A stretch of DNA of 64,000 nt from Candidatus Lloydbacteria bacterium RIFCSPHIGHO2_02_FULL_50_18 (lineage in GTDB: Bacteria; Patescibacteriota; Minisyncoccia; Phycocordibacterales; UBA6899). The notes beneath the pieces are model-generated. The model saw only the letters and a program-made list of their open reading frames with translations, ran no database searches and was not told the origin of the DNA. The stretch spans positions 1 to 64,000 of the forward strand of contig MHLM01000006.1 in assembly GCA_001821395.1 (NCBI GenBank). The letters run 5' to 3'. This document shows positions 290-38,792 of this stretch, in pieces (within the stretch, counting starts at the first letter, position 1; each line of letters starts with the position of its first letter). Position numbers and translations under genes: made by a program.

Positions 290-346
290 AAAAGCGACCC
301 TTATCGGTCGCCTCTTGAGTCTCTGCGTCGGGGGTGCCTATAGGGA
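290..346. repeat. Putative attL: 57-bp direct repeat of the tRNA-His 3' end plus terminator hairpin (54/57 identical to 21303..21359)
   Basis: aaaagcgaccc..tcgggggtgcctataggga recurs at 21303..21359 with 3 mismatches; contains the tRNA-His acceptor/T-arm 3' fragment in the same orientation as the tRNA. Confidence 0.75.
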
Positions 347-3811: not shown

Positions 3812-5131
3812 ATGCGGTCACACGATCGCATTATTCACTCATCTTTACCCTCTATGGCAAAGACGCAACTCACTTGGCAGACGGAGAAACGCAAGGTCGA
3901 TGACCTCGTTCCCCACGCCAAGAACCCTCGCACCCTCTCTCCAAAGCAGAAGGAGGAAATCGAAGCGAGCATTACCAAGTTTAACCTCGTCGAGATCCCC
4001 GCGATCAACACCGACAATCTCGTCCTCGCCGGACACGTTCGCCTGAAGACCATGCAGGCACTCGGGCGCGGGCAGGAACTGATCGACGTGCGCGTCCCAA
4101 ATCGCACGCTCACTGCAAAGGAGTGCGAAGAGTACCTTCTCCGTTCCAATAAGAACACCGGCTCATGGGATTATGAGCTACTCAGAGCATTCGATACCGA
4201 GTTTTTGCTCGACATCGGATTCGACGATACCGACCTTTCGAATATTTGGGACGATGTACTCTCACTCGAAGACGACGACTTCAATGAGACGAAAGAGCTC
4301 GAGAAAGCCAAGAAAACCACCATCAAGGTCGGTGACTGCTTTCAGCTCGGTGATCACTCCCTCATATGCGGTGACAGCACCGACGAAGCGGTCGTGAAAG
4401 ACTTGGTCGGAGGCTTCCGCATCGACACCATCTATTCGGATAGCCCGTACAACATCGACCTGAACTATGACAAGGGCGTAGGCAACAAGCAGTCATACGG
4501 TGGAGATGTCGACGACAACAAGTCTGATGCGGAGTTCAGGGCATTCACCGTGAAGACCCTTGCGAACGGACTCTCGGTCATCAAGAAGGACGCACATGTC
4601 TTCTGGTGGTGCGACCAGCGTTATGTCGGGATGATCCAATCGGTGTATCAGGAGGTTGGGATCAAGTACAAGCGCACCTGCTTGTGGATCAAGAACGGAT
4701 TTTCGCCGACACCCAAGGTCGCCTTCAACAAGTGCTACGAGCCTTGTATCTATGGCACTATCGGCAAGCCCTATCTCTCCGACAAACAGCGCAAACTCCA
4801 CGAGATACTCAACACCGATGTTGGCACGGGAAACGCCACGGTAGATGACATCAGTGACATGATCGACATATGGCTTGCAAAGCGTGTGAGTAGCGACGAG
4901 TACGAGCACCCCACCCAGAAGCCACTCACGCTCCACGAACGCCCACTCCTGCGCTGCACGAAGATTGGCGATAATGTCCTCGACCTCTTCGGGGGAAGTG
5001 GTTCGACGCTTCTCGCTTGTGAACAACTGGGGCGCAAGGCCTTCCTCGTCGAACTGAGCCCCATCTTTTGTCAGCTCATCATCAACCGCTATGAAAAATT
5101 CACCGGAGACAAAGCAATCAAGCTCAATTAA
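3812..5131 (+). CDS. ParB-like nuclease domain fused to a beta-class DNA (N4-C/N6-A) methyltransferase
   Basis: N-terminal ParB-like motif region; motif IV DSPYN then motif I DLFGGSGST (order IV then I is beta class). Confidence 0.8.
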   Translation: MRSHDRIIHSSLPSMAKTQLTWQTEKRKVDDLVPHAKNPRTLSPKQKEEIEASITKFNLVEIPAINTDNLVLAGHVRLKTMQALGRGQELIDVRVPNRTLTAKECEEYLLRSNKNTGSWDYELLRAFDTEFLLDIGFDDTDLSNIWDDVLSLEDDDFNETKELEKAKKTTIKVGDCFQLGDHSLICGDSTDEAVVKDLVGGFRIDTIYSDSPYNIDLNYDKGVGNKQSYGGDVDDNKSDAEFRAFTVKTLANGLSVIKKDAHVFWWCDQRYVGMIQSVYQEVGIKYKRTCLWIKNGFSPTPKVAFNKCYEPCIYGTIGKPYLSDKQRKLHEILNTDVGTGNATVDDISDMIDIWLAKRVSSDEYEHPTQKPLTLHERPLLRCTKIGDNVLDLFGGSGSTLLACEQLGRKAFLVELSPIFCQLIINRYEKFTGDKAIKLN

Positions 5132-5888
5132 GACGGGAGATGTGATCGCGCTCGGTGATCACATCCTGATCTGTGGAGATGCGACAAAGGTTGACCTCGC
5201 GAGCATTGTGAAAGGCAGAGTCCACCTTGTCCTCACCGACCCGCCGTATGCGATCGACTACGTGGCGAGCAAGCGCAACATCGTCGGCGTGTCGAAGGAC
5301 AAGGATATTGCGAACGATGGCTTCATGAGTGATGCAGAGTATGTGACATTCACGAAGGGGTGGCTCACGCCAGTACTCCCCCTCCTTGAGAAGAAGAACA
5401 GCATCTACGTCTTCAACTCGGACAAGATGATCTTCGCTCTGAGGCAGGCATTCGTGGAGCTCAGGCTCAAGGTGGCACAGCTCATCATTTGGGTGAAGGA
5501 TCGCGCCATCGTCGGGAGACTCGACTACCTCCCACAACATGAGCTCATCCTCTATGGATGGCACGGGACCCACGACTTCAAGCGCGGGAAGGACAAGTCA
5601 GTCATGTTCGTGCCGAAGCCATCACGCAGTACGCTTCACCCCACCATGAAGCCGATCCCTCTCCTCCGCAAACTCATCTTGAACAGTACCGATGTGGGTG
5701 ACGTGGTCTATGACCCGTTCGGAGGGAGCGGATCGACGCTCATCGCCTGCGAACACACGAAGCGCAGATGCGTCATGGTGGAGATGGATCCCGAGTACTG
5801 CGCAACGATCGTTCGTCGCTACGAGCAGTTGATTAACCGCGAAGACAATGGCAAGCAAGCACCCCACAGTACTGGAAAAGCGAATTGA
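5091..5888 (+). CDS. Beta-class DNA methyltransferase (DPPY)
   Basis: LTDPPYAIDY (motif IV) then DPFGGSGSTLIA (motif I); overlaps the upstream MTase by 41 nt. Confidence 0.8.
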   Translation: MKNSPETKQSSSIKTGDVIALGDHILICGDATKVDLASIVKGRVHLVLTDPPYAIDYVASKRNIVGVSKDKDIANDGFMSDAEYVTFTKGWLTPVLPLLEKKNSIYVFNSDKMIFALRQAFVELRLKVAQLIIWVKDRAIVGRLDYLPQHELILYGWHGTHDFKRGKDKSVMFVPKPSRSTLHPTMKPIPLLRKLILNSTDVGDVVYDPFGGSGSTLIACEHTKRRCVMVEMDPEYCATIVRRYEQLINREDNGKQAPHSTGKAN

Positions 5889-7868: not shown

Positions 7869-9023
7869 TTAATCAACCAGTTGGTAAAAACAGTTAGTTA
7901 ATTGGCGAATTAATTCTGGATAAATAGCGTCAAACGAGGAACCTTCTGGAATACCCAGCCGCTGACATACTGATACTAAGGCTTCAAATTTTTTCTCGTC
8001 ACTTACGGCATGGAGAAGATTTACCCGAAGATCGTACAGAACAAATAATGGGGAAACTATTTTGTGGACGTCCTTTTTAGGAAACTTCAGGCTAAACAGT
8101 AGTTCAATCCTCTTTAGTCCACCCAAATTTTTGGGGTCACCACCCAGCTTAATTATGATTGCCCCAAGATTGCTGACATCCAAAGATTCAATATTTATCT
8201 TATTCAAAAGATCCACGATATCCTTTTGCTCCTTTTCCGTATGAAGGACCGGTGGATTAAGTTTGGAGATGGATTGAATGGTCTCGTTTGTTAAATGACT
8301 CACCTCAAGTCCAAACTCTTTTGTACAAAACTCTAGGAATACAGACCGAGCATTAATTAACTTATCTTCAGGTGTATAGTCAGTAAATTTAACTTCAATC
8401 TGGCCATCATAGAACTCACTTCCAATGTCGTGGTCAGACTCAATATTTTCTGAACGCAGATAGTATTGCTCAGACTCATCTAGCGTGGCCATGTCACCAA
8501 GCCACATTATTACTTTTCCAGACTTGTTTACACCAAAAGATATATCGAAATCCTTTCCGCTGTAAATACTCCCATAGGTTTTTGAAGCAAATCGCACTCT
8601 ATAATCGGAATGGTTCTGGAATTTGAGCAGCACAGATTTTTTAAAAAATACAGGAGTTAAAAACCCAGAATTGTGATCTCTTTGCAGTCCAGGTATATAA
8701 TAGTAATCATCCGCATCATAAATAAATTTAACTTTTGTAAATCCAAGGTCCTCAACTATCTTCCTTCGATTACTGAAAATAGTATCCCGGTGTTCCTCAA
8801 GCGCCTTTTGGTGTAAATGAATGATCACAAATCTACTGTGATCAGGAAAATATTTTAAATCACATGATCCACAAAATAGATACGGTAGGGCTTGAATTGA
8901 TATATTTATTCCTGACACCAGTTCGTTGAAATCGAAATATTTCAAAACCATCGACTGTCCGCAATTTTCACAATATATACGCTGAACTTTTCCATCTTCG
9001 GGAAAGATATCCTTTATATCCAT
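7869..9023 (-). CDS. Uncharacterised zinc-ribbon protein that is the last gene of the type I RM operon
   Basis: 384 aa; N-terminal CENCG..CGSCD; 3-bp gap after the hsdR stop; no Walker motif, so not PrrC-like. Confidence 0.55.
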   Translation of the reverse strand: MDIKDIFPEDGKVQRIYCENCGQSMVLKYFDFNELVSGINISIQALPYLFCGSCDLKYFPDHSRFVIIHLHQKALEEHRDTIFSNRRKIVEDLGFTKVKFIYDADDYYYIPGLQRDHNSGFLTPVFFKKSVLLKFQNHSDYRVRFASKTYGSIYSGKDFDISFGVNKSGKVIMWLGDMATLDESEQYYLRSENIESDHDIGSEFYDGQIEVKFTDYTPEDKLINARSVFLEFCTKEFGLEVSHLTNETIQSISKLNPPVLHTEKEQKDIVDLLNKINIESLDVSNLGAIIIKLGGDPKNLGGLKRIELLFSLKFPKKDVHKIVSPLFVLYDLRVNLLHAVSDEKKFEALVSVCQRLGIPEGSSFDAIYPELIRQLTNCFYQLVD

Positions 9024-9026
9024 AGA

Positions 9027-11996
9027 CTAGTAATACTGCCTTATGTACTCATATGCTTTATCAAACAAAATATTATCTTTATGTAAGGCGTATTTATAGA
9101 GCGTCTTGCGAAGTGCCTGCTTGATCTCTCTCTCACCTGCTGCGGTACTCTGCCAACCCGGGAATCGTACAACTTTAACGATTCCATCTATGTCATTCAC
9201 TATGCGTTCTACTATTACAGGAGTTTGGTCAGTTTTGAGTTCAAGAAAAAGTTCGGAAAGAGCGGTCTTGGCACCATCTCTGCGTGTTTCTGTCTCAACT
9301 TCTTTTTCAGCCTGGACAGTTTCCTTCGCCAATTGAATAAGGTCTTTCAAAAACTCAATACTGTTAATTAGGCCCCGCTCAGCCTTATCCCTTAATTCCT
9401 CCAAGCGTTGACCAAGTGCGACAAAACGGGGGTCACCTTTGTGGCGAAGAAATCTCTTTGTAATCTCGATTTCAATTAGCTTAATTTTTTTCTTGTCAGT
9501 AGTGTGCATCAAATCCTCGATAACCTCTGCATCCAGAACTATTTCTTCGAGATGATCGTCAACTCCTTGGACGTGAATGTGTTCATGAATGAGTTTCATC
9601 GTCTGAGCACCAAGTGCATGCCAGAGAAGCCGACCTGTTTCTCCAGAGGGAGGGCGCACGGATTCATACACCTGCGATAACCATGTGTATTCATTCTGAA
9701 ATTTATTCAATATCGGATCTGGAGACAATGCTTCCCATATTTTACTTAAAACCGAGTAGTCCGCAGCATAGGCATCTCGTTTCTCGTCGGTATTTAAACA
9801 ATCCTGAGCTAGCAAAAGGCCTTCATAGCCCACCACAGATCGGTCGATGCCATGAAAATGACCGAGGCAAGTATTAACTGCTCCCTGAAGCTCATTTTTT
9901 AACTCGTTGAGATTTGTGATTACATACCGAACACTGGCATCGTCAAACTCGAGAGCTTTTGCAACATCATCGAATACGCCAAAATAATCCACGACTAATC
10001 CGTATGCCTTATCTTTATATACACGATTAGTGCGGCAAATGGCCTGTAGAAGGTTGTGATCTTTTAGCGCCTTGTCGAGATACATACACTGGAGAATCGG
10101 CGCATCAAACCCTGTAAGTAATTTAGCAGTAACGATCAAAAACTTAAGAGGATGCTCAGGATCCCGGAAGTTGTCGAGAAGTTTTTCCTGGTCTTCCTTG
10201 CTCATCTCATACTTCTGCTTAAGCATGGTGTCTGTTTCGCCCTTGCCGCCCGTTGAGATGACCACCGCACTTGCTTCCGGAGGTAAAATCTTATCAAGTT
10301 CTTGCTTATAGAGGTCACAGGCGTATCTGTCAGGAGTTACGATTTGGGCCTTAAAGCCCTGCGAATCAATTTTTTCTTGAAAATGTTTTACAACATCTTT
10401 AACGATTGTCTCAATGCGAGCAGGAGATTTAAGAAAAGCAGACATCTTTGCCGCTTCCTTTACCAAGCTCGTTCGATCGTCTTCTGAAAGATGTTCTGTC
10501 ATCTGGTCGAATTCAGCATCAATCAAGTCTCTGTCAACGTGAACATTCAATAGGCGCGGTTCGAAGTGCAGAGGGAGTGTTGCCTTGTCGCGAATTGAAT
10601 CCTGAAAAGTATATCGGGTCATGTAACCCTGATCATCTTCTTCGGCACCAAATGCCCAGAACGTGTTTCTTTCTGTTTTGTTGATAGGGGTACCAGTCAG
10701 ACCAAATAGGAATGCGTTCGGCAGGGCATCGCGCATTTTACGACCAAGATCACCCTCTTGTGTGCGATGAGCCTCATCTACCAAGACAATGATGTTTTCT
10801 CGTTCATTAAGCACGCCTCCAGCCTCAGCAAATTTAAAAATGGTAGTTATAATAATCTTTCTCGTATCCTTGTTTAAGAGATCGTGGAGTTCTGATCGTT
10901 TATCTGTTGACACAACATTTGGTATCTCTGTTGCGTTGAAAGTTCCTGTAATTTGAGTATCCAAATCGACTCGATCAACCACAACGAGAACGGTGGGGCT
11001 TTTTAATTCTTGAGATCGACGGAGCTTCTGCGCTGCAAATACCATCAATAGTGACTTACCAGATCCTTGAAAATGCCAAATGAGTCCCTTCTTCGGCCTA
11101 CCCGCCTTTACGCGCTCAATGATCAGGTTTGCGCCCTCCATCTGTTGGTAGCGGGCTATTATTTTTATCCGCTGCTTTCGCTTGTCTGTCGCAAAGAGCG
11201 TGAAGTTTTGAAGCAAGTCCAAAACAACTCCTGGATCAAGTGCTCCGGAAATCGCTTGTTTAATTTCAGAAAGACCCGCAATGGCACCTTTTGAGTCACG
11301 CCAAGGCCCCCACAACTCGAGCGGCATACGAATTGAGCCGTAACGGAATGTTTTACCCTCGGTTGCAAACGAAAACACATTTGGAACAAATAGTTGCGGG
11401 ATTGTATTTTCGTAATCGTCGTGAATATCGATCGCGCCGTCGAGCCAAGAAATAGAGGGGCGCACGGGTGTCTTAAATTCTCCCACGACGAGCGGAATTC
11501 CATTAACCAACATCACCAAATCGGGACGTTTCTCAGCCTTGCCTTGAACGGTGTACTGATTTGTGACAATGTATGTATTTTTCCCCAAGCTATCGAAATC
11601 AATAAAACTGATCGAAACGTGCTCATTATTTTCGCCAAACGGCATTGTCTTGTCACCACGGAGCCACGCAGAAAATTCTTCGTTCGCTCTAACGAGACCG
11701 GATGTTCCGACCGAGAGAAAGATCGCTCGTATTTTATATAAAACTTCGTCGGCTTTATTGGGGTCAGCTGCAATATCCGGATTAAGACGAATCAGAGCGT
11801 CTTTTAATAGCGACTCAACGATTGCATCTTTGGCTTCGCGCTTGAGTTGAGAGGAGGGAACGTATTGCCACTTCAAACCAGGGTGAAAAGCACTATCTGG
11901 GGCAAGATAGTTTGAATCCTGCATAAGCTCCGGGCTTATGCCGGTAAGTTCGTTCAAGATAAAGTGTTCGGTTGTATTTATTTCGTTAAATTTCAT
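9027..11996 (-). CDS. hsdR: Type I restriction enzyme R subunit
   Basis: 989 aa; SF2 helicase motif I FQGSGKS and DEAH box VLVDEAHRTQ; position after hsdS. Confidence 0.9.
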   Translation of the reverse strand: MKFNEINTTEHFILNELTGISPELMQDSNYLAPDSAFHPGLKWQYVPSSQLKREAKDAIVESLLKDALIRLNPDIAADPNKADEVLYKIRAIFLSVGTSGLVRANEEFSAWLRGDKTMPFGENNEHVSISFIDFDSLGKNTYIVTNQYTVQGKAEKRPDLVMLVNGIPLVVGEFKTPVRPSISWLDGAIDIHDDYENTIPQLFVPNVFSFATEGKTFRYGSIRMPLELWGPWRDSKGAIAGLSEIKQAISGALDPGVVLDLLQNFTLFATDKRKQRIKIIARYQQMEGANLIIERVKAGRPKKGLIWHFQGSGKSLLMVFAAQKLRRSQELKSPTVLVVVDRVDLDTQITGTFNATEIPNVVSTDKRSELHDLLNKDTRKIIITTIFKFAEAGGVLNERENIIVLVDEAHRTQEGDLGRKMRDALPNAFLFGLTGTPINKTERNTFWAFGAEEDDQGYMTRYTFQDSIRDKATLPLHFEPRLLNVHVDRDLIDAEFDQMTEHLSEDDRTSLVKEAAKMSAFLKSPARIETIVKDVVKHFQEKIDSQGFKAQIVTPDRYACDLYKQELDKILPPEASAVVISTGGKGETDTMLKQKYEMSKEDQEKLLDNFRDPEHPLKFLIVTAKLLTGFDAPILQCMYLDKALKDHNLLQAICRTNRVYKDKAYGLVVDYFGVFDDVAKALEFDDASVRYVITNLNELKNELQGAVNTCLGHFHGIDRSVVGYEGLLLAQDCLNTDEKRDAYAADYSVLSKIWEALSPDPILNKFQNEYTWLSQVYESVRPPSGETGRLLWHALGAQTMKLIHEHIHVQGVDDHLEEIVLDAEVIEDLMHTTDKKKIKLIEIEITKRFLRHKGDPRFVALGQRLEELRDKAERGLINSIEFLKDLIQLAKETVQAEKEVETETRRDGAKTALSELFLELKTDQTPVIVERIVNDIDGIVKVVRFPGWQSTAAGEREIKQALRKTLYKYALHKDNILFDKAYEYIRQYY

Positions 11997-13138
11997 GTAA
12001 TTACTTGAGTGAGGATTGCGTTTCGCATCGCCCTCGTTAGTTCGATAGAATTTTGCAACTGCTTCTTGATCTCCGTAAGTTGAGCAAGGTTCCTGAGAAT
12101 ATCTTTTTGCTTCTCGAGAGTAGGAACATAGATTTTATACTCGGAAACAATCTTATGAGATATGCGAGGCATCTTTGTCCCAAACCCCAGGGAAACAGCA
12201 TAGTGAATGAAACCATCAGAGTGTAGGTGGTGGAGAACGTATTCAATGTCTATATCAGGCGTTGCATCATACACAAGCAATTCCGTTGTACAGACTCCAT
12301 CAAATGATGGAATAACAGCCTTATCCAAATTGGGGCGTAGCTTGCTATAGAGCAATTGCCCGCTTTTGAAGACGTTGCAAGAGGACTGTGATTGTTGAGC
12401 GTCGCCATAAGCATCTACATTAAACGACCCTGGTTCAATATGCTCCAAACCTAAGTATTTCTCAAGTTTGTGTGGCGGAGCACTCTTCATCTTTGAAAGT
12501 TTTAAACATTCGCCTAGTTTTTTCCTGTCTAGTTTATTCTTAGTGAGTTCAGCAAAAATTGTCTTGAGTGTCAAATTTATTTTGTCCGCCGCGATTCTGT
12601 ATTTCTCTTCCAATTGATCTGACGCTATCAAAAGACCCAGTATTTTCTTCTGTACCTGACGGGGTGGCAGAAGAAATTTCTGTTGCGCAAGAATTTTCCA
12701 TTTAATGGTCGGTGAAAGTGAGCCTTCAGAGATATCTATCGCCCGATTCATAAATGCGTCAGAATGCATAAAGAATGGAAGAAAATCTGGTTCAATATGG
12801 GATGAATCTGCGCGGACGACCATCGCATGTGCGGAGCAAATTCCATCAAACTCTGCTATGGAGGCTTTTCTCTGGTATGCACGCCGTTTCCCAAAGATTA
12901 TGTCCCCTTTATATACACGAAGCTTGACGCCTTTTACATCAGACGGCACGCCGAATCGACGGATGTGAATAGAGTCGGAATCTAGATGTTCAAGACCAAC
13001 ATAAATATCGGCATCGGAACTGTTCGGGTCAACCCTTTCAGAGATATTCTTCGCTATATCACCAAACTTAGCCAACTCCCAATCGGAGCGGTTATGTTTA
13101 ACGAAAATATTTTCAGCTTGTTTATTAAGAGTTTTCAT
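11993..13138 (-). CDS. hsdS: Type I RM specificity subunit
   Basis: 381 aa with two TRD-like halves and conserved central/C-terminal repeats; operon position. Confidence 0.8.
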   Translation of the reverse strand: MKTLNKQAENIFVKHNRSDWELAKFGDIAKNISERVDPNSSDADIYVGLEHLDSDSIHIRRFGVPSDVKGVKLRVYKGDIIFGKRRAYQRKASIAEFDGICSAHAMVVRADSSHIEPDFLPFFMHSDAFMNRAIDISEGSLSPTIKWKILAQQKFLLPPRQVQKKILGLLIASDQLEEKYRIAADKINLTLKTIFAELTKNKLDRKKLGECLKLSKMKSAPPHKLEKYLGLEHIEPGSFNVDAYGDAQQSQSSCNVFKSGQLLYSKLRPNLDKAVIPSFDGVCTTELLVYDATPDIDIEYVLHHLHSDGFIHYAVSLGFGTKMPRISHKIVSEYKIYVPTLEKQKDILRNLAQLTEIKKQLQNSIELTRAMRNAILTQVIT

Positions 13139-14612
13139 ATGTTTTTTTGTCTAACATCTCTAAGAGAGATCGGGATCCCCTTTTTAGGTCAGAACTATTC
13201 TGAGACCATTCCTCTACTACCACTCGGAGTCCTTTTTCTTTAATACCATTCCCTTGAGTAGATATGTAGAGCGGAATATTAAGATTTGCGTTATTGTTGA
13301 GGATATTTTGATTGTCGATCACTTTCGTAAAATTTGGTATATCAATAAATTCCTTAAATGCTGCATGAATTCTTTCAACATGTGGATCTTCAAGAAAAGA
13401 AAAAGCATTCTGCCGCGTTACTTCTTTAACAGCATTTATAAAAAGTACTCTACCTTTTCGTTCTTTAGGTTTGTCCCAACGGCAAACCAACAAGCAGGCC
13501 TCCATGGGTGAGTTGTAAAATAGATTTGGGCCCAAACCGATGACTGCTTCGATTACGTCATCCTTTAGCATTTTTTCTCTGAACTCCCGCTCAGAATCAC
13601 GAAAGAGAACCCCGTGAGGCCAAAGGACAATGCTCCGGCCGTTTTTCTTGTCTAGGCTTTTGAGAATATGCTGCTCAAAAGCATAGTCTGCACATCCTTG
13701 TGGAGGGGTGCCGTAAATGTTTCTCCCGTAAGGATCATTCGTCCACGCATCTCGATTCCACCTCTTAACTGAATACGGCGGGTTCGCAAGGATGACGTCG
13801 AAGGTTTTAAGTTTGTCGTCCTCCAAAAACTTTGGGCTAGACAATGTGTCTCCACGCTCAATATGAAAGTCCTCGATTCCATGAAGAAACATGTTCATTC
13901 GCGCGATGGAGGATGTCATCAGATTCAACTCTTGCCCATAGAGCTTAAGCGTTCGGTATTCTTTACTCTGGTCCTTAAGTTGGTTTACGCAGTTCAGTAA
14001 TAACCCACCAGAACCACAAGTTGGATCGTATACGCTCTCACCTGGCTGGGGGTTCATTATCAAGCTCATTAAACGAACGACCGTACGATTGGTGTAGAAC
14101 TCAGCAGCTGTATGCCCACTATCATCTGCAAACTTCTTGATAAGGAATTCATATGCATTACCAAGTTCGTCATTGGGAACATTGGCAATGCTTAGGTCTT
14201 GTTCAGAAAAATGTTCGAGTAGGTCTATTAGAATCTCGTCAGATAGACGACTCTTGTTTGTCCAAGAGGCGTCGCCAAAAATACCGAATAAACGATCCTC
14301 GTTCGTCTTTTCAATTTTGCGGAGCGCCTTCTGTAGGGCATCCCCCACATTAACCGTCACCTGTCGAACATCATTCCAGTGTGCCCCTTTGGGAATTTGG
14401 AATCTATGATTTTCATCAAATTTTGCATATTCTTTGTCGCCCCCCGATTCATTGAGTGCCCGCTCGTATTCTTCTTTGTAGACATCACAGATGCGCTTAT
14501 AAAATAATAAGGGGAAAATATATTGCTTGTAGTCTCCAGCATCAATGACACCACGAAGAAGTGTCGCCGCTCCCCAAAGATATCTTTCCAGTTCTTGTTT
14601 TTTAATAGCCAT
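13125..14612 (-). CDS. hsdM: Type I RM N6-adenine methyltransferase subunit (paralog 1)
   Basis: 495 aa; VYDPTCGSGGLLL (motif I) and ILANPPYS (motif IV). Confidence 0.9.
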   Translation of the reverse strand: MAIKKQELERYLWGAATLLRGVIDAGDYKQYIFPLLFYKRICDVYKEEYERALNESGGDKEYAKFDENHRFQIPKGAHWNDVRQVTVNVGDALQKALRKIEKTNEDRLFGIFGDASWTNKSRLSDEILIDLLEHFSEQDLSIANVPNDELGNAYEFLIKKFADDSGHTAAEFYTNRTVVRLMSLIMNPQPGESVYDPTCGSGGLLLNCVNQLKDQSKEYRTLKLYGQELNLMTSSIARMNMFLHGIEDFHIERGDTLSSPKFLEDDKLKTFDVILANPPYSVKRWNRDAWTNDPYGRNIYGTPPQGCADYAFEQHILKSLDKKNGRSIVLWPHGVLFRDSEREFREKMLKDDVIEAVIGLGPNLFYNSPMEACLLVCRWDKPKERKGRVLFINAVKEVTRQNAFSFLEDPHVERIHAAFKEFIDIPNFTKVIDNQNILNNNANLNIPLYISTQGNGIKEKGLRVVVEEWSQNSSDLKRGSRSLLEMLDKKTYENS

Positions 14613-14613
14613 A

Positions 14614-16101
14614 CTATTTTGATATCAGAGAAAACCCATCTAAGAGTCTTTTGAGTTCTGTCTCAGCCTCCCATACCTCCTCGAGAGAATTCTTCAACTC
14701 TTTCGTGGCCTCTTCTACTGACGGGAGTGTCTTACCTGAAATCTTTTCAATATAAAGAGAAATATTTAGGCTCCAATCATTTGCCGCAATGTCTTTGAGG
14801 GTTGCCACCACGGCGTGGTCTTTAACACCCTTGAACGCAGAGTACCAGTCGAAAATCTGATCAACATGCCTCTGCTCAAGATAATTTTGAGCACGATCCA
14901 CGCGCACCTGGTCTGATGCGTCTATAAACAAAACCTTACCTTCTTTGTTGTCAGGCTTATTAGCACGAAATACTAAAATGCATGCGGCAACTGTTGCTCC
15001 ATAGAAGATATTAGGCCCAAGTCCTATCACTGCTTCAAGCGCATCTGTCTCTATTATTTTCTTTCTTATTTGTCCTTCTCGACCCTTGCGAAATAGTGCG
15101 CCATGAGGAAGAACCACGGCTATGCGTCCGCGAGGATAAGACATGGATTTGATCATGTGTTGCACCCACGCGTAATCTCCATAACCAGCTGGTGGTACCC
15201 CTGCAAAATTTCTACCGTATGGGTCCTGAATCCAAAGGTCATCACCCCACTTCTTTAGGGAGAAGGGTGGATTAGCAATAACGCAATCAAAGGTCGAAAG
15301 TTGATCGCCTTCATAGTATGCGGGACTTCGTAATGTATCTCCACGCTGAATTTGGAAGTCCTGAACATCGTGGAGGAACATGTTCATGCGAGCAATGGAT
15401 GAAGTGGTGAGGTTTTTTTCCTGTCCAAATATTTTTAGAGTGCGGGCGTCCTTACCATGAGAGCGTAGGTGCTCAACACAATTGAGTAGCATGCCTCCCG
15501 TACCACAGGCTGGGTCATATACAGTCTCACCTTCTTTTGGATCAATTATACGGCCCATGAGCTGAACAACTGTTCTCGGTGTATAAAACTCCCCCGCTTT
15601 CTTGTTTGTTAAATCAGCAAACTTTTTTATGAGGTATTCGTATGCCTGACCGAGCATGTCGAGGTCGACCGTTCCGTTTGCCAGCTTGTATTCAGAAAAA
15701 TGTTCAATAAGTTCCACCAATAAGCTGTCGGGCAACTTCTCCTTGTTGGTCCATTGTGCATCTCCAAAGATCCCATACAGAAAATCAGGATTGGCTTTTT
15801 CAATTTCACGAAATGCATACTGAAGCTTTGCTCCAACATTCTTTGTGGTGGCGCGCACATCTGCCCAATGACATCCATCAGGAATTATAAATCTATGGAA
15901 TTCTGGCAAAACTGCGTAACCCTCATCGCCCTTAGATTCTTCTAATAGCTTTTTATATTCATCATCATAAACATCTGAAAGTCGTTTAAAAAACAGGAGT
16001 GGAAAAACATATACCTTAAAATCAGCAGCATCAACTGGCCCCTTGAGTATCCATGCGGCTTGAGCGAGATGTTGTTCGAGTTGTGGGAGTGTCAATTTCA
16101 T
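14614..16101 (-). CDS. hsdM: Type I RM N6-adenine methyltransferase subunit (paralog 2, roughly 50% identical to paralog 1)
   Basis: 495 aa; VYDPACGTGGMLL and IANPPFS; collinear with paralog 1. Confidence 0.9.
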   Translation of the reverse strand: MKLTLPQLEQHLAQAAWILKGPVDAADFKVYVFPLLFFKRLSDVYDDEYKKLLEESKGDEGYAVLPEFHRFIIPDGCHWADVRATTKNVGAKLQYAFREIEKANPDFLYGIFGDAQWTNKEKLPDSLLVELIEHFSEYKLANGTVDLDMLGQAYEYLIKKFADLTNKKAGEFYTPRTVVQLMGRIIDPKEGETVYDPACGTGGMLLNCVEHLRSHGKDARTLKIFGQEKNLTTSSIARMNMFLHDVQDFQIQRGDTLRSPAYYEGDQLSTFDCVIANPPFSLKKWGDDLWIQDPYGRNFAGVPPAGYGDYAWVQHMIKSMSYPRGRIAVVLPHGALFRKGREGQIRKKIIETDALEAVIGLGPNIFYGATVAACILVFRANKPDNKEGKVLFIDASDQVRVDRAQNYLEQRHVDQIFDWYSAFKGVKDHAVVATLKDIAANDWSLNISLYIEKISGKTLPSVEEATKELKNSLEEVWEAETELKRLLDGFSLISK

Positions 16102-16331
16102 TTTGGTGACGATGTCAGCTTTTCAACGGTAGTCCCCAGAGCTGTGGCAATTTTTACCATCGTTGCCACTCGGGGATCAGGAGTGAGTCCGCTCTCAATC
16201 TTCGCAATGGTGTGATAATCAAGGCCGGTTTTCGTAACCAGCTTGCTCTTAGACAATCGCTTTTCATTTCTAATTTTTCTCAAGTTTCCTGCGATATTTG
16301 AGAATTTTTTTGGGTGAGATTTCTTTTTCAT
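16098..16331 (-). CDS. XRE-family HTH protein; candidate controller (C) protein of the RM operon
   Basis: 77 aa HTH_3-like (LSKSKLVTKTGLDYHTIAKIESG); 4-bp overlap with hsdM. Confidence 0.7.
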   Translation of the reverse strand: MKKKSHPKKFSNIAGNLRKIRNEKRLSKSKLVTKTGLDYHTIAKIESGLTPDPRVATMVKIATALGTTVEKLTSSPK

Positions 16332-16488
16332 ACGACAACCTTGCTTAGCATAATTATACCAAATTTATTGAGTTTTTGCTGCAATAAAAAGTGGATAAAA
16401 ATAGGGCTATTTGAGGGATGGTTACCAACAGCTTACCAACTGACCCTCCCTGGACTCCCTGGGAGGGTTGCGTCATCAATTGGTGTGT

Positions 16489-17844
16489 ATGAAAAATACA
16501 AACCCGCTAGAGGGCTCTGACGAGCCGAAAATTAAGTACTGTTTATACGCTAGAAAATCGAGCGAATCGGACGAGCAGCAAGCCCTTTCGATCGACTCCC
16601 AAGCCAAGGAGATGCTCCAGCTGGCGCAACGAGAGGGGCTTGATGTGGTCGACATCAAGCGCGAGTCGCACTCCGCAAAAAGCACCGGGCAACGCCCGGT
16701 CTTCAATGAGCTGATCAGCGACCTCAAGGAGGGCAAGTTTAATGCCATTCTCGCATGGCATCCGGATCGCTTAAGCAGAAATGCAGGCGACCTCGGTGCT
16801 ATCGTCGACCTGATGGACGAGCACCGACTTATCGAAGTGAGAACCTTTGGTCAAAAGTTTACAAATAGTCCAAGCGAGAAGTTTCTACTCATGATTCTAT
16901 GCTCGCAAGCAAAGCTTGAGAACGACAACAAGGGCGTGAACGTGAAGCGGGGGCTACGAGCAAAAGTTGAGATGGGACTATGGCCATGCGTTGCACCGAC
17001 CGGATACATCAACGACCGCATGCCTGGGCGTGCAGGATATGTGCTCGTCGACCCGGTGCGTGCTCCGATTATCAAGCAAATATTTGAAAAGGTCGGCAAT
17101 GACCGATGGAGCGCTAGGACGGTTTATAAATGGATGGTCAAAGAAGGAAAGTTCAATAGCGTGAGAAAAGGAAATAAGGCACTCACCCTGAGCACAATCT
17201 ATCGACTTCTGCATCAGCCTTTCTATTCGGGAACATTCGAGTACCCCACCGGGAGCGGTAACTGGTACAAAGGTCAACATGAGCCACTCGTTTCCAAGGA
17301 ACTCTTCGAGAAGGTGCAGCAAAAAATAGCGGAGGAGTTGAAGTCAAAGAAACAATATCAAGAATTCACCTTCACGAACCTTATGCTCTGCGGATACTGT
17401 GGGTCAGGTATTACCGCACAATCAAAAGACAAAAATCTCAAAGATGGGAGCGTCAAAAGTTACACCTACTACAACTGCACGCACAACAAGGATCACTTCT
17501 GCAAAAACCCGTTCATTCGCGAAGAAGAACTTCTCAAACAGATCGATGAGATCTTCGACAAGATCGATATCGACGAACTTGGAACACGGCATATCATTGA
17601 AAGAGAGGTTGCGCGATACAACAACATTCGGGCAAAACTCCTCGGCGCAAAAGAAAATGACAAAGCACTCGACGTCGACGTGCGAAACTATGCCAAGTAC
17701 ATGCTCAAAGAAGGCACGATGCTCGAAAAACGCGAACTCCTAGGGTGCCTAAAAAATAGAATTATTCTGAAGGATAAAACGATAACGCTTGAAAAAAGTT
17801 TGCAAATTAATGACTTAACGCCACAAACACAGATAGCACGCTGA
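16489..17844 (+). CDS. Large serine recombinase (resolvase domain, recombinase domain and zinc ribbon)
   Basis: YARKSSESDEQQALSIDSQ catalytic Ser region; C-terminal CGYCGS..YYNCTH; an alternative TTG start exists at 16468. Confidence 0.85.
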   Translation: MKNTNPLEGSDEPKIKYCLYARKSSESDEQQALSIDSQAKEMLQLAQREGLDVVDIKRESHSAKSTGQRPVFNELISDLKEGKFNAILAWHPDRLSRNAGDLGAIVDLMDEHRLIEVRTFGQKFTNSPSEKFLLMILCSQAKLENDNKGVNVKRGLRAKVEMGLWPCVAPTGYINDRMPGRAGYVLVDPVRAPIIKQIFEKVGNDRWSARTVYKWMVKEGKFNSVRKGNKALTLSTIYRLLHQPFYSGTFEYPTGSGNWYKGQHEPLVSKELFEKVQQKIAEELKSKKQYQEFTFTNLMLCGYCGSGITAQSKDKNLKDGSVKSYTYYNCTHNKDHFCKNPFIREEELLKQIDEIFDKIDIDELGTRHIIEREVARYNNIRAKLLGAKENDKALDVDVRNYAKYMLKEGTMLEKRELLGCLKNRIILKDKTITLEKSLQINDLTPQTQIAR

Positions 17845-18172
17845 GGATGACGAGTATCTTCACCCCACCTCCATACACAATCCAAGTAAATAATTTTTTT
17901 GCAGCAAGCATAACTATTCCGAGCACCAGAATGGAAACTCCAACGCCCGTGAGTGGGTCGTGCAATCCTTTCATAGGAGCATGAGTCCAAACAAAAAATA
18001 TACCTACGACAACCATAAGCCGCGCAATTATGTTAAACCAGCTTATGGAATCTTCGTGGCCAAAAGGAGCACCTCCTATGCCAACTTTCTTAGCAAAGAA
18101 GACACGAGTTACTGCTCCGGCAACACTTGCGATAACACGAATTACTAACTGTTGGAAAAAACTCCCATCCAT
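17807..18172 (-). CDS. Small four-TM membrane protein, last gene of the Ubl/E1 operon (candidate effector)
   Basis: 121 aa with four hydrophobic helices; 1-nt gap after the JAB-E1 stop; convergent 38-nt overlap with the recombinase 3' end. Confidence 0.5.
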   Translation of the reverse strand: MDGSFFQQLVIRVIASVAGAVTRVFFAKKVGIGGAPFGHEDSISWFNIIARLMVVVGIFFVWTHAPMKGLHDPLTGVGVSILVLGIVMLAAKKLFTWIVYGGGVKILVILSVLSVFVALSH

Positions 18173-18173
18173 A

Positions 18174-19565
18174 CTATTTTAAGTTCTCATCAAAAACTTG
18201 ATAACTATCATCATTTGAGTCTCCTTTTCCGGTAAATTCTGAGAATGGGCAATTTGGCAAGCAGTCTTCACCGAGTTTTCTTTCCAGCTCCCCGGTAACA
18301 AAATGGTATAGATTTTCACCGTGATGACTTATGCCGTTGGGTTTTACTACAAGTGCCAACATCTGTAGCACCATCATTGAGGCGAGGTGCATGCTAAAAG
18401 CAAAAACGTTTTGATTGTTCAAGTGATGGCGCAAACCGTCAACGGTGTTTATGTACTCCGAATCATCCAGCAGACCTTTGCGTTCAAGAGACACTTCAGC
18501 AAAGGTGTACTGCCCAATGCACGAGAGACATTTATTACCCGGGGTTGCAGTGTGCGCACGCCAATCCGCTGAGCGCAACAAATCCTCCTTGGTGTGCACT
18601 CGAATACCACCATCAACGACTGGAATCAGGTGTGTATAAGCAATGTAATTAAGAACGTGGCGCGCCCACGGCCTATCAACGCAACTGAACAGGAGGTCAC
18701 AATTTAGTGCACCTCGGTATCCCTCAGCTCCAGTTACATGAACTGGTAATCGTGTGACGAAAAAGTTGTCGGCAGTTGCGTGTTCAATAAGTCTTTTTGC
18801 AATTACATCCGTCTTCAATTCACCAACATCTTTTATCGTCGCATGCATAAGTCGATCGAGGTTGTGTTTCTTTACTACGTCAAAATCGATAAGCGAAATA
18901 TGCTGAACTCCAGTTCTAGCAAGTGCCTCAGCAATAGCACTTCCGACACTTCCCGTGCCGACTATTCCTATGTGTAAACGAGATAATTCGTCTTGCTTAT
19001 CTTGACCCCATGAAGAAATTGTACGTTTCAGTTCTTCTCTAAAACCCTGCGGCTTAAGCAGCGCGTCACAATAGGTGATAGAAAGGCCCATTTGACCTAT
19101 AGTGCGAACACTCTCGCACCATGATGGAGCATATTCCCGAACCCCGGTTCTATTCCAAAAACGAGCACTCCACGCACCATCTGTGCCTATAGTTAGTCCA
19201 AGGAGGGGTCGTTCTGTTATTCCAAAGGTTGCCGCAGCGTGCGATAACTCCGCCCGAACATCGGTCCTGCTCATATTCTGCCATCCAGGAAACGGGTGGC
19301 TATGCATAAAAGCAAGGCCCATATCTCGGGCGGATGCTATTTGTAGTGCTCTCTGAAAATACTCGGGAGAAAAACTCGCGTTGCCATGCACTTCCCGCTC
19401 TCCGTCTTCAGGAAGAATCGGTTCAACCAAGAGTGCTGTCAGTCTTTCTCCTCCGCTGCTCGGCTGCCACAAAGCAAAACATAAGTCTTCCTGCCCATCC
19501 TTACGCACAAGATGAGAAAAGAGTTTCTGGTTTACCTCGGTTGTCATCGCTACGCTGTATCTCAT
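18174..19565 (-). CDS. JAB/MPN (JAMM) metalloprotease fused to an E1-like ThiF/MoeB adenylyltransferase
   Basis: N-terminal HSHPFPGWQNMSRTD (HxH..SxxD JAMM motif); then GIVGTGSVGS..IDFDVVKKHNLDRL E1 Rossmann motifs; C-terminal CxxC pairs. Confidence 0.8.
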   Translation of the reverse strand: MRYSVAMTTEVNQKLFSHLVRKDGQEDLCFALWQPSSGGERLTALLVEPILPEDGEREVHGNASFSPEYFQRALQIASARDMGLAFMHSHPFPGWQNMSRTDVRAELSHAAATFGITERPLLGLTIGTDGAWSARFWNRTGVREYAPSWCESVRTIGQMGLSITYCDALLKPQGFREELKRTISSWGQDKQDELSRLHIGIVGTGSVGSAIAEALARTGVQHISLIDFDVVKKHNLDRLMHATIKDVGELKTDVIAKRLIEHATADNFFVTRLPVHVTGAEGYRGALNCDLLFSCVDRPWARHVLNYIAYTHLIPVVDGGIRVHTKEDLLRSADWRAHTATPGNKCLSCIGQYTFAEVSLERKGLLDDSEYINTVDGLRHHLNNQNVFAFSMHLASMMVLQMLALVVKPNGISHHGENLYHFVTGELERKLGEDCLPNCPFSEFTGKGDSNDDSYQVFDENLK

Positions 19566-19924
19566 AGTGTGTTGAGGAGTTTTATAACGTGAGCAAGGTA
19601 AACATCGACGTTACGTTTACTACTTTCCCAGCTCGGGTGCGGCCTACTAAGATGCATCCACTCAGGGCCAAAATCACTGTCGTGAATTCGATCACGATGC
19701 TCCTGTGATGAGGTGTTGGTGGGCAACGTACGCGGATGAATATGTGGGCCGTGGGGAGCAGTCAGCTCAAAGTCTCCTGGGACATCTACCCCAACGCGAA
19801 CTGTCTTGCCTGCAAGAGTTCCTTCGTTGACAGACAGCGCAAATGCCAGCCGATTGCCTTCAAGGTTTTCAACCTCAAAACCAAGATTCTTGAGACCTTG
19901 AATAAATTTTTCTTTGCCGCTCAT
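19562..19924 (-). CDS. E2/UEV-like protein lacking a catalytic Cys
   Basis: 120 aa, beta-rich, then PHGPHIHP (HPN-like) and two W.P-like motifs; no cysteine; 4-bp overlap with the E1 gene. Confidence 0.4.
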   Translation of the reverse strand: MSGKEKFIQGLKNLGFEVENLEGNRLAFALSVNEGTLAGKTVRVGVDVPGDFELTAPHGPHIHPRTLPTNTSSQEHRDRIHDSDFGPEWMHLSRPHPSWESSKRNVDVYLAHVIKLLNTL

Positions 19925-19929
19925 GTTGT

Positions 19930-20184
19930 TTACCCCACAGGCGTTTGTCCAGTAAACACCGTGACGAACTTCATGTGATTATGCATCTTGATCACCTCGT
20001 CCAAATCTTTATGCGGTTCCTGCTGATGACCCTTAACCTCAACCAAATAGTACTGCTGCGAATCGACATTCGCCATTGATAATATCTCTCGAACAGACAA
20101 CTCCTTCTTTTCAGTAGTGAGTGTTTCACCGTCGACCGTAAAATCGATACCGTGACCTTTTTCCTCCTTCTCGTGGTTTTCCAT
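19930..20184 (-). CDS. Ubiquitin-like beta-grasp protein ending ...TGQTPVG
   Basis: 84 aa; IDFTVDGE..YYLVEV..KFVTVF beta-grasp pattern; terminal Gly; 5-bp gap to the next gene. Confidence 0.5.
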   Translation of the reverse strand: MENHEKEEKGHGIDFTVDGETLTTEKKELSVREILSMANVDSQQYYLVEVKGHQQEPHKDLDEVIKMHNHMKFVTVFTGQTPVG

Positions 20185-20295
20185 ACAGTTTTTTTATATA
20201 ATTAATGAATTAACACATGAACCAATATTCCTCTTGACTCTGGACGAGAGTCGCGGTAACCTGTTTCATATGTAAGACAGTGTACACCTGAGGTG

Positions 20296-20315
20296 TTTCA
20301 CTAGTCAAACACTTT
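20296..20315. promoter_or_regulatory. Near-perfect 20-bp palindrome GTGTTTCACTAGTCAAACAC; candidate operator in the divergent promoter region
   Basis: 18/20 self-complementary; 9 bp upstream of the XRE start and upstream of the divergent Ubl operon. Confidence 0.45.
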
Positions 20316-20323
20316 TTTCATTT

Positions 20324-20674
20324 ATGAAACACAATAAAAACAGCGTCAATTTTGCTATTGAGCAATTGGGTCAGAAGGTCGCGCTTAAAAGATCGGGAAG
20401 CGGGATGAGAGATACCTCCGCAGAGATTGGCATCAGCCCTGCTACCCTCTCGCGAATCGAGAGGGGGTACATGCCCGATATCGGCACATTCCAAAAAGTA
20501 TGCACTTGGCTCAACATTGATCCGGGTGAAATTCTTGGTGCAAAAACTCACGTCAGTGAGGTGCAGATGGCAACTGTGCATTTTCGTAAGAAGCAAACGG
20601 TTGCTCCGGAAACCGCGCAAGCTTTAGCACAACTCATTATTGCAGTACAAAATAATGTTCTCGCATCAGAGTAA
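20324..20674 (+). CDS. XRE-family HTH repressor (CapH/ImmR-like)
   Basis: SAEIGISPATLSRIERG HTH_3; paired with the downstream ImmA peptidase. Confidence 0.8.
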   Translation: MKHNKNSVNFAIEQLGQKVALKRSGSGMRDTSAEIGISPATLSRIERGYMPDIGTFQKVCTWLNIDPGEILGAKTHVSEVQMATVHFRKKQTVAPETAQALAQLIIAVQNNVLASE

Positions 20675-20692
20675 AAAACTGATTATGTTGTC

Positions 20693-21271
20693 ATGTTTAA
20701 AAAAGGATTTAAAACCTGGTGTGAAAGAGCTTCAATTAGTACTCGCAGACAACTGGGTCTGCAATCTTTCGATCCGATAGACTTATACAAGGTCGCGGCA
20801 ATCGTCGAGGCTGATATTAAGTATCCAAAAGATGTTCCTGGGCTTGATAAAAAGTTTTTAAAAATTTTAACGGAGGAGGACCCAGATAGCTGGTCTGCAA
20901 TAACCATAAAAATAAAACAGAAAATCGTTATTATTCTAAACTCTGCCCACACCAAAGCGCGTCAGATGAGTAGTCTTGGTCATGAGTTATCTCATTTGAT
21001 TATCGGACACCCTGCGTCCAAAACTGGTATTTCAGCAGATGGGCTTTTGATAACTGGGTTCGATCGACTTCAAGAGGATGAGGCGGGATGGCTTTCGGGG
21101 TGTCTTCTTTTGCCCCATGATGCGTGTCAGTATATTAAAAAGACAAAGATGGACCAAAGCAGTGCTCAACGACATTACGGAATAAGCGCTGATATGTATA
21201 CATATCGCATGAACGCCTCTGGGGTAAATCGCTTGTGGACCCCTAAAGTAAGTAGCATTAAAGCGAAGTAA
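20693..21271 (+). CDS. ImmA/IrrE-family zinc metallopeptidase (CapP-like)
   Basis: HELSHLIIGH HExxH motif in the DUF955 context, directly after the XRE gene. Confidence 0.8.
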   Translation: MFKKGFKTWCERASISTRRQLGLQSFDPIDLYKVAAIVEADIKYPKDVPGLDKKFLKILTEEDPDSWSAITIKIKQKIVIILNSAHTKARQMSSLGHELSHLIIGHPASKTGISADGLLITGFDRLQEDEAGWLSGCLLLPHDACQYIKKTKMDQSSAQRHYGISADMYTYRMNASGVNRLWTPKVSSIKAK

Positions 21272-21302: not shown

Positions 21303-21359
21303 AAAAGCGACCCTTCTGGGTCGCCTCTTGGGTCTCTGCGTCGGGGGTGCCTATAGGGA
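21303..21359. repeat. Putative attR: the partner of the 57-bp direct repeat, overlapping the tRNA-His 3' end and its terminator hairpin
   Basis: See 290..346; the GCGACCC-TTCT-GGGTCGC hairpin serves as the tRNA terminator. Confidence 0.75.
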
Positions 21360-21418
21360 ATCGAACCCTAGCTAAAGGCTCCACAAGCCTCTGTGCTAAC
21401 CGCTACACCATAGGCACC
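21346..21418 (-). tRNA. tRNA-His (GTG) with an encoded G-1
   Basis: Acceptor GTGCCTA/TAGGCAC, anticodon loop TTGTGGA, T-loop GGTTCGATTCC, extra 5' G pairing with discriminator C. Confidence 0.85.
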
Positions 21419-35753: not shown

Positions 35754-36278
35754 TTACTGCACGCTTTTTAAGCTATCTAAGACTATCGCTGCGGTACCTG
35801 ACCAGACCCCGCCTGCTCCAGACCCTTTCACTTCAAATCGTGAGATGGTCAAATGGGAGGGAAATTCTTCCAGAAGTCGCAGAAAATGATACATTTGCCC
35901 CCAAGTTCCACTCATTGAAAATGAGCCACGCAGACTAGGCTGTGCATCAGTGCTCAAATCGAGTGATACTGTTTCTATCCTCGCACCGGTCGTACTCGAA
36001 CCGAGTTGTTCCATCCGTGAAACAAAATCTATTTGGCTTTCATCACTCGGATCATATAAGAATTTTAGCATTTCCTCATGGTCTTTTTCTACGGTAGCCA
36101 ATGTGCGTTTCAGGGCGATCAGGTTTCTCCCTTTTTGATCCTGCAGGAGCAACTCCTTACGTAATTCACTACCCTCATCTTTTTTACTCTGTATCACTGT
36201 ATACCCCCACCACAAACCCGCCGCCATGAATGCGTCGAGTGCGAGCAGTATCATCAGGATGTGTAAAATACGTTTCAT
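35754..36278 (-). CDS. pilO: Type IV pilus assembly protein PilO-like
   Basis: 174 aa; N-terminal TM; operon position after pilN. Confidence 0.55.
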   Translation of the reverse strand: MKRILHILMILLALDAFMAAGLWWGYTVIQSKKDEGSELRKELLLQDQKGRNLIALKRTLATVEKDHEEMLKFLYDPSDESQIDFVSRMEQLGSSTTGARIETVSLDLSTDAQPSLRGSFSMSGTWGQMYHFLRLLEEFPSHLTISRFEVKGSGAGGVWSGTAAIVLDSLKSVQ

Positions 36279-38321: not shown

Positions 38322-38792
38322 CTACTCGTCATCAGAAAATTCTTCCTGCAGTTTTGGGAAATGTTTATCCAAATAACTCTGCAGGATGATGGCCGCAGCC
38401 GACGCATCATTTTGGGGATTATCCCCCTGCAAATGCATTGCTTCCCGGGAAGAAAGCACTTCGTTCATAAGAAAAATGGGGAGCGACGTCGTCGTCTTCA
38501 ACTGTCCCATGAACACGCCGATCTTTTTCATGATCGGATTCGGTAGATTCTGAAAATTCAACGACTCACCAATAACGATGGCATCAATGTGTTCCTTTTG
38601 ACAAATAGCAACAATATCCTCGATCAAGGAGTGAGTATTCAAGATGACGCACAAAGGAAAGGCCATCGTTCCCCCATCTGGGGCAACCGCAAGCCCAACG
38701 CGCTTTGTTCCAAAATCAATACCTAAATATTTCATCTCTACACAGTAGCGCACGTTCTCTGAGGGCACAACGTGATGAGTTTCGGTGAGCAA
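38322..38792 (-). CDS. ruvX: Holliday junction resolvase-like YqgF/RuvX
   Basis: KYLGIDFGTKRVGLAV N-terminal signature. Confidence 0.85.
   Translation of the reverse strand: MLTETHHVVPSENVRYCVEMKYLGIDFGTKRVGLAVAPDGGTMAFPLCVILNTHSLIEDIVAICQKEHIDAIVIGESLNFQNLPNPIMKKIGVFMGQLKTTTSLPIFLMNEVLSSREAMHLQGDNPQNDASAAAIILQSYLDKHFPKLQEEFSDDE

Follow-up and report, generated by a model that had tools for sequence, protein, structure and literature searches.

A CapH/CapP-type regulator pair and three clustered operator-like sites as the probable switch of a Bub-like operon on a tRNA-His defence island of a Lloydbacteria genome

The 64,000-nucleotide stretch of contig MHLM01000006.1 from Candidatus Lloydbacteria bacterium RIFCSPHIGHO2_02_FULL_50_18 analysed here (the window) contains, at 20185-21271, two plus-strand genes preceded by an intergenic region of 139 bp (20185-20323), the first gene encoding an XRE-family helix-turn-helix (HTH) protein and the second a zinc peptidase of family M78, the family of ImmA, IrrE and CapP (Table 1). 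The XRE gene lies upstream on the same strand, with exactly 18 nt between its stop codon and the peptidase start, and the intergenic region is common to this pair and to a divergent operon encoding a ubiquitin-like protein (Ubl), an E2-like protein and a JAB-E1 fusion. An earlier interpretation made from the letters alone, the sequence-only reading, had described an HTH_3 gene followed after 18 bp by an HExxH peptidase, with a palindrome in the upstream region shared with the Ubl operon. Both parts were borne out, the former by matches to HTH_3 and PF06114 together with the exact gap, and the latter by the location of 20185-20323 between the divergent genes.

That palindrome, GTGTTTCACTAGTCAAACAC, is one of three related sites (O1 to O3, of which it is O2), all of the form TGTTTCA-N4-TGAAACA and all inside 72 bp; the sequence-only reading had reported one operator of the three. 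Its 18/20 self-complementarity (9/10 pairs) is as claimed, and its position is 20293-20312, 3 nt to the left of the 20296-20315 first given, so that 11 nt, and not 9 bp, separate its end from the XRE start codon at 20324. The sequence occurs once in the 64-kb window, where one further 18-mer reaches at least 12 of the 14 consensus positions. By itself, the palindrome exceeds chance only weakly, with 7 20-mers of at least 9/10 pairs observed in the window against about 2.2 expected from Markov resamples. The sites gain significance because three related ones cluster within 72 bp and because the motif is conserved across loci. The right half of O3, ATGAAACA, encodes an M-K-Q/H N-terminus that is conserved in the closest relatives of the XRE protein. 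An operator-like match at 36006-36025, outside the island described below, was dismissed as chance, being at the background rate.

To place the locus in a comparative context, one genome per species in GTDB was scanned, which yielded 276 loci, and 80 of these, from Acidobacteriota, Pseudomonadota, Planctomycetota, Chloroflexota, lineages of the candidate phyla radiation and others, were compared. In 79 of the 80, an XRE homologue stands directly upstream of the peptidase homologue. A position weight matrix (PWM) seeded with the three window sites only was trained on half of the loci and tested on the other half. The held-out 230-bp zones upstream of XRE homologues contained 71 and 75 sites, a density of 8.3-8.8 per kb. 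The remainder of the held-out loci contained 20-21 sites, a density of 0.045 per kb, so that the motif is enriched about 185-fold just upstream of XRE homologues (74 held-out loci, many phyla), and at least two sites were present in 58 of the 74. The operator consensus reads CTGT(T/C)T(C/T)AC-NN-GTGA(A/G)ACAG.

The arrangement of the sites is conserved as well. Two to three sites occur in 62 of 77 regions, with O1 and O2 mostly 31-32 bp and O2 and O3 19-23 bp apart. The corresponding distances in the window are 32 and 20 bp, which sets the centres roughly 3, 2 and 5 helical turns apart and therefore facing approximately the same side of the double helix. A metagenome-assembled genome from a glacier stream (L001) carries the same operon with 89-98% protein identity, and its intergenic region differs from that of the window at 6 of 139 positions, none of them inside any predicted element; by our own arithmetic, the chance of all six missing the elements is (74/139)^6, about 0.02. 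In 47 of 147 sites, mirror positions 5 and 16 are occupied by the mismatched bases C/A, and it is the bases of each half-site that are kept, not the pairing between the arms. The leader RNA of the XRE gene folds no better than shuffled sequences (z -1.7), and an Rfam scan returned no family match apart from tRNA. Because the half-site bases are conserved, the leader fold is unremarkable and Rfam gives no match, we take the three to be protein-binding sites on DNA and not RNA hairpins.

Consensus matches and the layout of the related loci suggest that two promoters face each other across this region, with both predicted start points within O1. Of the 60 loci that have at least two sites, aligned on O1, 43 show TTGA(C) at a distance of 25-30 nt leftward of O1, and 50 show GTCAA at 35-52 nt past the start of O1, within O2 or close to it; the right half of O2 forms TTGACA on the opposite strand. 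In addition, a hexamer xAxACT is joined to the left edge of O1 (CTGT) in related loci, and a hexamer TAnACT on the opposite strand is joined to its right edge.

Members of the XRE protein family are mostly 107-124 aa long. An AlphaFold2 (AF2) model of the window protein, with a predicted local distance difference test score (pLDDT) of 74.7, consists of an HTH domain (residues 5-70), a flexible linker modelled with low confidence and, at its C-terminal end, a helix spanning residues 95-115. Residues S38, A40-R44 and E46 of the recognition helix are invariant in the family alignment, which fits the conservation of the operator across phyla. Within a linker that is otherwise variable, H86 and F87 are invariant, V85 is nearly so, position 88 is R or K, and the motif as far as K89 is invariant or close to it. 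CapP cleaves CapH at F82/R83 (10.1101/2022.04.27.489752), and because the conserved VHF(R/K)K motif parallels that site, the peptidase is predicted to cut the repressor between F87 and R88, which would detach the HTH domain from the oligomerisation helix.

The peptidase carries its HExxH motif at H97-E-L-S-H101 (codons at 20981-20995) together with a downstream glutamate zinc ligand, and R90, H97, E98, H101, H106, E128 and E130 are invariant among 31 aligned family members. These residue numbers equal those of CapP from E. coli MS115-1, with zinc ligands H97/H101/E128, catalytic E98 and the single-stranded DNA (ssDNA) contact R90 (PMC13228613), a match of numbering and not a residue-level alignment. 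The family is a tight one of roughly 183-204 aa, and all 80 homologues, at about 182-203 aa, are similarly short. Searches against PDB sequences, with single proteins and with family profiles, returned generic HTH matches and very weak IrrE matches and nothing more. Since sequence searches could not settle family membership, it was assessed by fold comparison. The AF2 model of the peptidase is confident (pLDDT 89.9), and Foldseek ranks PprI/IrrE at the top. The capP profile of PADLOC matches with E 1.4e-8, covering just positions 15-129 of its 242. The chain stops after the peptidase domain and a short domain of helices, that is, a CapP-like fold without the GAF domain. Two cysteines, C10 and C137 (codons at about 20720-20722 and 21101-21103), are nearly invariant in this short-peptidase family, within the motifs FK(T/S)WCE and GCLLLP; both positions lie outside the cysteine-switch loop of CapP, and the two residues may serve a structural, redox or metal-related role.

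On the other side of the intergenic region, the leftward operon resembles a Type I Bub (6E.1) operon (PMC11601596), with the order Ubl, E2-like protein and JAB-E1 fusion (BubCD). Like those operons, it is part of a mobile element located at a tRNA gene, and regulators of the CapH+CapP type adjoin it. Homologues of the window Ubl occupy the same position in four loci (L001, L018, L039 and L055). The E2-like protein has no Pfam match, and hhalign relates it to the E2 half of Ubl-E2 fusions (L004, L028, L032) with 83% probability and E 8.8e-6. The JAB-E1 protein matches the E1-E2 models of PADLOC, and its match to the Prok-JAB profile is weak (E 0.16). Unlike in Type I Bub, the Ubl and E2-like proteins are encoded by separate open reading frames (ORFs), 5 nt apart, and not by a BubAB fusion, and the E1 gene is followed by that of a 121-aa membrane-type protein, a putative part of the system, which is conserved in L001 only and sits at the position that DUF6527 (BubE) has in Bub operons. 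No DUF6527 was found in the operon or in the ten other large island ORFs scanned. The JAB-E1 proteins of L018 and L039 (570 and 506 aa) have, instead of the 121-aa protein, an unrelated C-terminal extension. The E2-like protein contains zero cysteines and shares His/Pro-rich motifs (GPH..PR and H..S.FG..W..SRP) with its three closest homologues; an E2 without a catalytic cysteine may fit a 'diverged' Bub chemistry.

The divergent cargo of the related loci is likewise composed mostly of ubiquitin-like conjugation components, together with parts of the antiphage signalling system that is based on cyclic oligonucleotides (CBASS). ORFs were called with a crude greedy procedure, especially crude in loci of high GC content, so that each count is a minimum for the loci taken together, without attribution to any one of them: for ubiquitin-like conjugation, at least 23 ORFs with ThiF, 13 with Multi_ubiq, 9 each with DUF6527 and Prok-JAB, 5 with DUF6791, 4 with Prok-E2_E and 3 with Metal_CEHH; and for CBASS, at least 4 with SMODS, 3 with SAVED and 2 with Patatin. 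A constant regulator pair with variable cargo looks like a portable regulatory cassette. Two such cassettes are found in one genome in two cases, L023 with L024 (contig JAJDDM010000135.1) and L012 with L060 (OZ253557.1), and in one of these a single contig holds both copies, separated by about 13 kb; the XRE-peptidase cassette thus appears to be reused for several operons in one genome.

Taken together, we consider it probable, at roughly 80%, that the locus is a CapH/CapP-type (ImmR/ImmA-like) switch for the Bub-like operon on the tRNA-His defence island. In the repressed state, the 116-aa XRE protein would occupy O1 to O3 as oligomerised dimers. Because O1 spans both predicted start points, a single dimer there, between the -10 elements of both promoters, should block both and so shut the Ubl operon as well as the regulator genes themselves, an autoregulatory arrangement; occupancy of O2 would cover the -35 element and spacer of the Ubl promoter, and that of O3 the XRE start codon. 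On a stress signal, the 192-aa peptidase would cut the linker of the repressor at VHF/RK, the HTH domain would part from the C-terminal oligomerisation helix, DNA binding would be lost and the operon for the Ubl, E2-like, JAB-E1 and membrane proteins would be expressed. The inducing signal, by analogy DNA damage or ssDNA, is the weakest part of this interpretation, since half of the ssDNA groove of CapP and IrrE is made by a GAF domain, which this peptidase does not have.

This logic has precedents. CapH/CapP was defined by Lau et al. (2022) as a pair divergent from a defence operon, in which CapH represses and CapP cleaves CapH on ssDNA or DNA damage, and the same authors noted CapH/CapP-like pairs adjoining 6e ubiquitin-like systems (10.1101/2022.04.27.489752). 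CapH and CapP were subsequently reported at 31% of 544 Bub operons, which reside in mobile elements at tRNA genes (Ye et al. 2024, PMC11601596), and at 15% of Type II Bil operons (Chambers et al. 2023, PMC10557695). Both the switch logic and its link to 6E/Bub operons are therefore already published, and our finding is confirmatory. The ImmR/ImmA or CapH/CapP logic that the sequence-only reading had proposed is supported by the conservation of the pair (79/80), the defence cargo and the conserved operator over the predicted Ubl promoter.

The closest parallel is with CapH/CapP from the CBASS loci of E. coli MS115-1 and Thauera sp. K11, in which an XRE gene is followed by an M78 HExxH gene, divergent from a defence operon across a shared promoter region. 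The repressors have in common an N-terminal HTH with a short C-terminal oligomerisation region and an aromatic-Arg motif in the linker or C-terminal domain (F87-R88 here, F82/R83 in CapH), and the peptidases share the numbering of R90, H97, E98, H101 and E128. The three operators that overlap the predicted promoters here differ from the one 22-bp site described upstream of the -35 element in MS115-1. ImmR/ImmA, from ICEBs1 of Bacillus subtilis and from phage phi105, resembles the pair in having an M78 peptidase that is short, GAF-less and encoded immediately after the XRE repressor, in its divergence from the target operon and in its residence on an integrated mobile element; derepression by site-specific cleavage of the repressor is how ImmR/ImmA works and is the scheme proposed here. 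When the XRE protein alone was searched against PDB sequences, ImmR was the sole match (E 0.69), and no sequence relationship is detectable beyond the domain families. The divergent operon, however, encodes ubiquitin-like conjugation and not excision or transfer, and nothing identifiable at the window locus corresponds to the activation of ImmA through RecA or RapI. DdrO/IrrE (PprI) of Deinococcus is further removed, with a GAF-containing peptidase, an unlinked gene and a dispersed regulon, compared with the GAF-less peptidase, compact two-gene cassette and local target described here.

Several observations weigh against a CapH/CapP-type switch, or at least against a direct transfer of what is known of CapP. 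In CapP and IrrE, ssDNA lies in the groove between peptidase and GAF domain, and the HTH of CapH docks on the GAF domain (PMC13228613). The window peptidase, at 192 aa against about 280 aa, stops short of the three-domain architecture of CapP (peptidase, HTH-like linker and C-terminal GAF). No GAF domain is present in the peptidase homologues of any of the 80 loci, and no separate GAF gene or conserved third gene was found downstream of the peptidase in any of them, so that the activation mechanism of CapP and IrrE is not simply transferable. The family alignment also has no cysteine between H101 and E128, and hence no cysteine-switch loop, a feature that occurs in about one third of CapPs and is not strictly defining. 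The C-terminal domain of the repressor is modelled, with moderate confidence, as a single helix, whereas that of CapH is a two-helix V-shaped domain, and neither protein matches the solved CapH, CapP, ImmR or IrrE beyond weak HTH or HExxH similarity, that to solved CapH or CapP being negligible. Furthermore, promoter positions are based only on consensus matches and conservation, the rightward -10 element, TAACCT, is a weak match, and no Shine-Dalgarno sequence precedes the XRE start codon.

The alternative that survives best retains the same switch and changes only its trigger, from direct ssDNA sensing or DNA damage to an activation like that of ImmA, through RecA or a partner encoded by the element or a phage, to a zinc or redox signal, or to a constitutive activity limited by substrate access. 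Although not the version we favour, we regard it as a serious possibility. The family-wide absence of the GAF domain speaks for it, and so does the fact that, of five ssDNA-contact residues tested in CapP, four lie outside the peptidase domain, together with the CapH docking surface (PMC13228613). ImmA is moreover reported to respond via RecA or RapI (10.1101/2022.04.27.489752), and C10 and C137 are near-invariant. Yet R90, which in CapP and IrrE is the ssDNA contact within the peptidase domain, is invariant here, the helical linker domain, against which the ssDNA packs, is kept, and all characterised relatives respond to DNA damage.

A different proposal would make the pair the immunity module of the island itself, as ImmR/ImmA is for ICEBs1, controlling excision or transfer via a serine recombinase, with the Ubl operon as a mere neighbour. 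The setting lends itself to this: the XRE-peptidase/Ubl locus lies at the right end of an island of about 21 kb (about 347-21302, where GC content dips to 37-44%), bounded by 57-bp direct repeats that are 94.7% identical and include the 3' end of tRNA-His and a terminator hairpin. L001 shares the island up to about window position 21348 and then diverges, so that the island must lie in a different flank there. The gene of a large serine recombinase is 2.5 kb away, homologues of it are found near the pair in L001, L003, L043 and L064, and the peptidase is similar to ImmA in size. The recombinase gene, however, is on the opposite strand and converges with the Ubl operon, and upstream of it no operator-like site is present. 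In most related loci a recombinase is missing, but a defence operon stands directly divergent from the pair. The operators overlap the predicted promoter that reads into the Ubl gene. We thus consider this proposal improbable.

Pairs of the Xre-COG2856 type belong to a toxin-antitoxin or abortive-infection class. A self-contained module of this kind, regulating itself only, would account for two small co-oriented genes 18 nt apart and for the placement of O3 over the XRE start, which suggests autoregulation. It would leave unexplained the conserved divergent partnership with defence operons and the leftward -35 element built into O2 in 50 of 60 loci, and the fold and profile of the peptidase match the regulatory peptidases CapP and IrrE; we hold it for very improbable. 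Least credible of all is that the palindromes are chance matches or RNA hairpins of a leader attenuator or terminator. In favour of this, 20-mers with 9/10 pairs do arise by chance about twice per 64 kb, and the predicted 5' leader of the XRE mRNA includes O2 and O3. Neither version accounts for the roughly 185-fold enrichment in held-out loci or for half-sites conserved in their bases and not in their pairing, with an Rfam scan and leader folding that give no sign of a structured RNA.

Beyond the CapH/CapP-type switch itself, the loci may represent a distinct and widespread 'mini-CapP/CapH' lineage, with GAF-less peptidases of about 190 aa and repressors of about 115 aa at 276 or more loci among GTDB species genomes, responding to a signal other than ssDNA bound in a peptidase-GAF groove, and with an undescribed face-to-face promoter design in which a single repressor oligomer would lock both promoters through O1 and two operators on the same face. 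We put this forward as a tentative idea, and a somewhat doubtful one.

Table 1. Positions, in window coordinates, of genes and of observed and predicted elements at the XRE-peptidase/Ubl locus and in the surrounding island.
Feature	Position	Strand	Basis or remark
Operator-like site O1, CTGTTTCATATGTAAGACAG	20261..20280		PWM score 25, best-scoring; covers both predicted promoter start points
Operator-like site O2, GTGTTTCACTAGTCAAACAC	20293..20312		Right half carries the predicted -35 of the Ubl promoter
Operator-like site O3, TTTTTTCATTTATGAAACAC	20313..20332		Right half is the XRE ATG and codons 2-3 (ATG AAA CAC)
Rightward (XRE-peptidase) -35, TTGACT	20234..20239	+	Predicted; read from the sequence
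Rightward -10, TAACCT	20257..20262	+	Predicted from the layout of related loci; 17 nt after the -35; abuts or overlaps O1
Leftward (Ubl operon) -35, TTGACT	20303..20308	-	Predicted by consensus scan; inside the right half of O2
Leftward -10, TACACT	20279..20284	-	Predicted by consensus promoter scan; adjoins O1
XRE-family repressor gene (CapH-like, 116 aa)	20324..20674	+	Pfam HTH_3, E 3e-8
Codons for V85-H-F-R-K89, predicted cleavage site F87/R88	20576..20590	+	Motif conservation and parallel with CapH
M78 (ImmA/IrrE/CapP-type) zinc peptidase gene (192 aa)	20693..21271	+	Peptidase_M78 (PF06114), E 3e-9
Ubl gene (84 aa, C-terminus ...PVG-stop), first of the leftward operon	19930..20184	-	Multi_ubiq, E 1.3e-4, narrowly missing the Pfam cutoff
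E2-like protein gene (120 aa)	19562..19924	-	hhalign to Ubl-E2 fusions
JAB(JAMM)-E1 fusion gene (463 aa)	18174..19565	-	ThiF, E 2.7e-30; N-terminal HSHx8SxxD read from the translation
Hydrophobic membrane-type protein gene (121 aa), last of the leftward operon	17807..18172	-	No family match
Large serine recombinase gene	16468..17844	+	Resolvase, Recombinase and Zn_ribbon_recom domains
HTH_3 gene (77 aa)	16098..16331		
HsdM-like gene (495 aa)	14614..16101		
HsdM-like gene (495 aa)	13125..14612		
HsdS gene	11993..13138		
HsdR gene	9027..11996		
57-bp direct repeat, left copy	290..346		
57-bp direct repeat, right copy	21303..21359		
tRNA-His	21343..21418	-	

The remainder of the island carries further defence genes, at 3812-5888 and 7869-16331. 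They include two adjoining N6/N4 DNA methylase genes and a type I restriction-modification system with HsdR, HsdS and two tandem HsdM-like genes. At its stop, the 77-aa HTH_3 gene shares 4 nt with the start of the hsdM-like gene upstream, and its product could be a controller-type protein. The serine recombinase gene overlaps the last gene of the convergent Ubl operon by 38 nt, and the homologue in L003 (53% identity) lies directly downstream of the XRE-peptidase pair. Elsewhere in the window, ARAGORN calls a permuted tmRNA at 38328-38948 on the minus strand, overlapping tRNA-Ser at 38854-38942 and with an odd tag peptide, which looks like a false positive.

The analysis provides a regulatory map of three operators and two predicted promoters, together with a predicted cleavage site, and this map appears to be valid for a regulator family across many phyla. 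The common short form of the peptidase is devoid of the GAF domain, a domain that the current ssDNA-sensing model of CapP and IrrE relies on. Bub/6E operons are so far without a demonstrated biological role (PMC11601596), and knowing the switch that controls them is a practical route to one.

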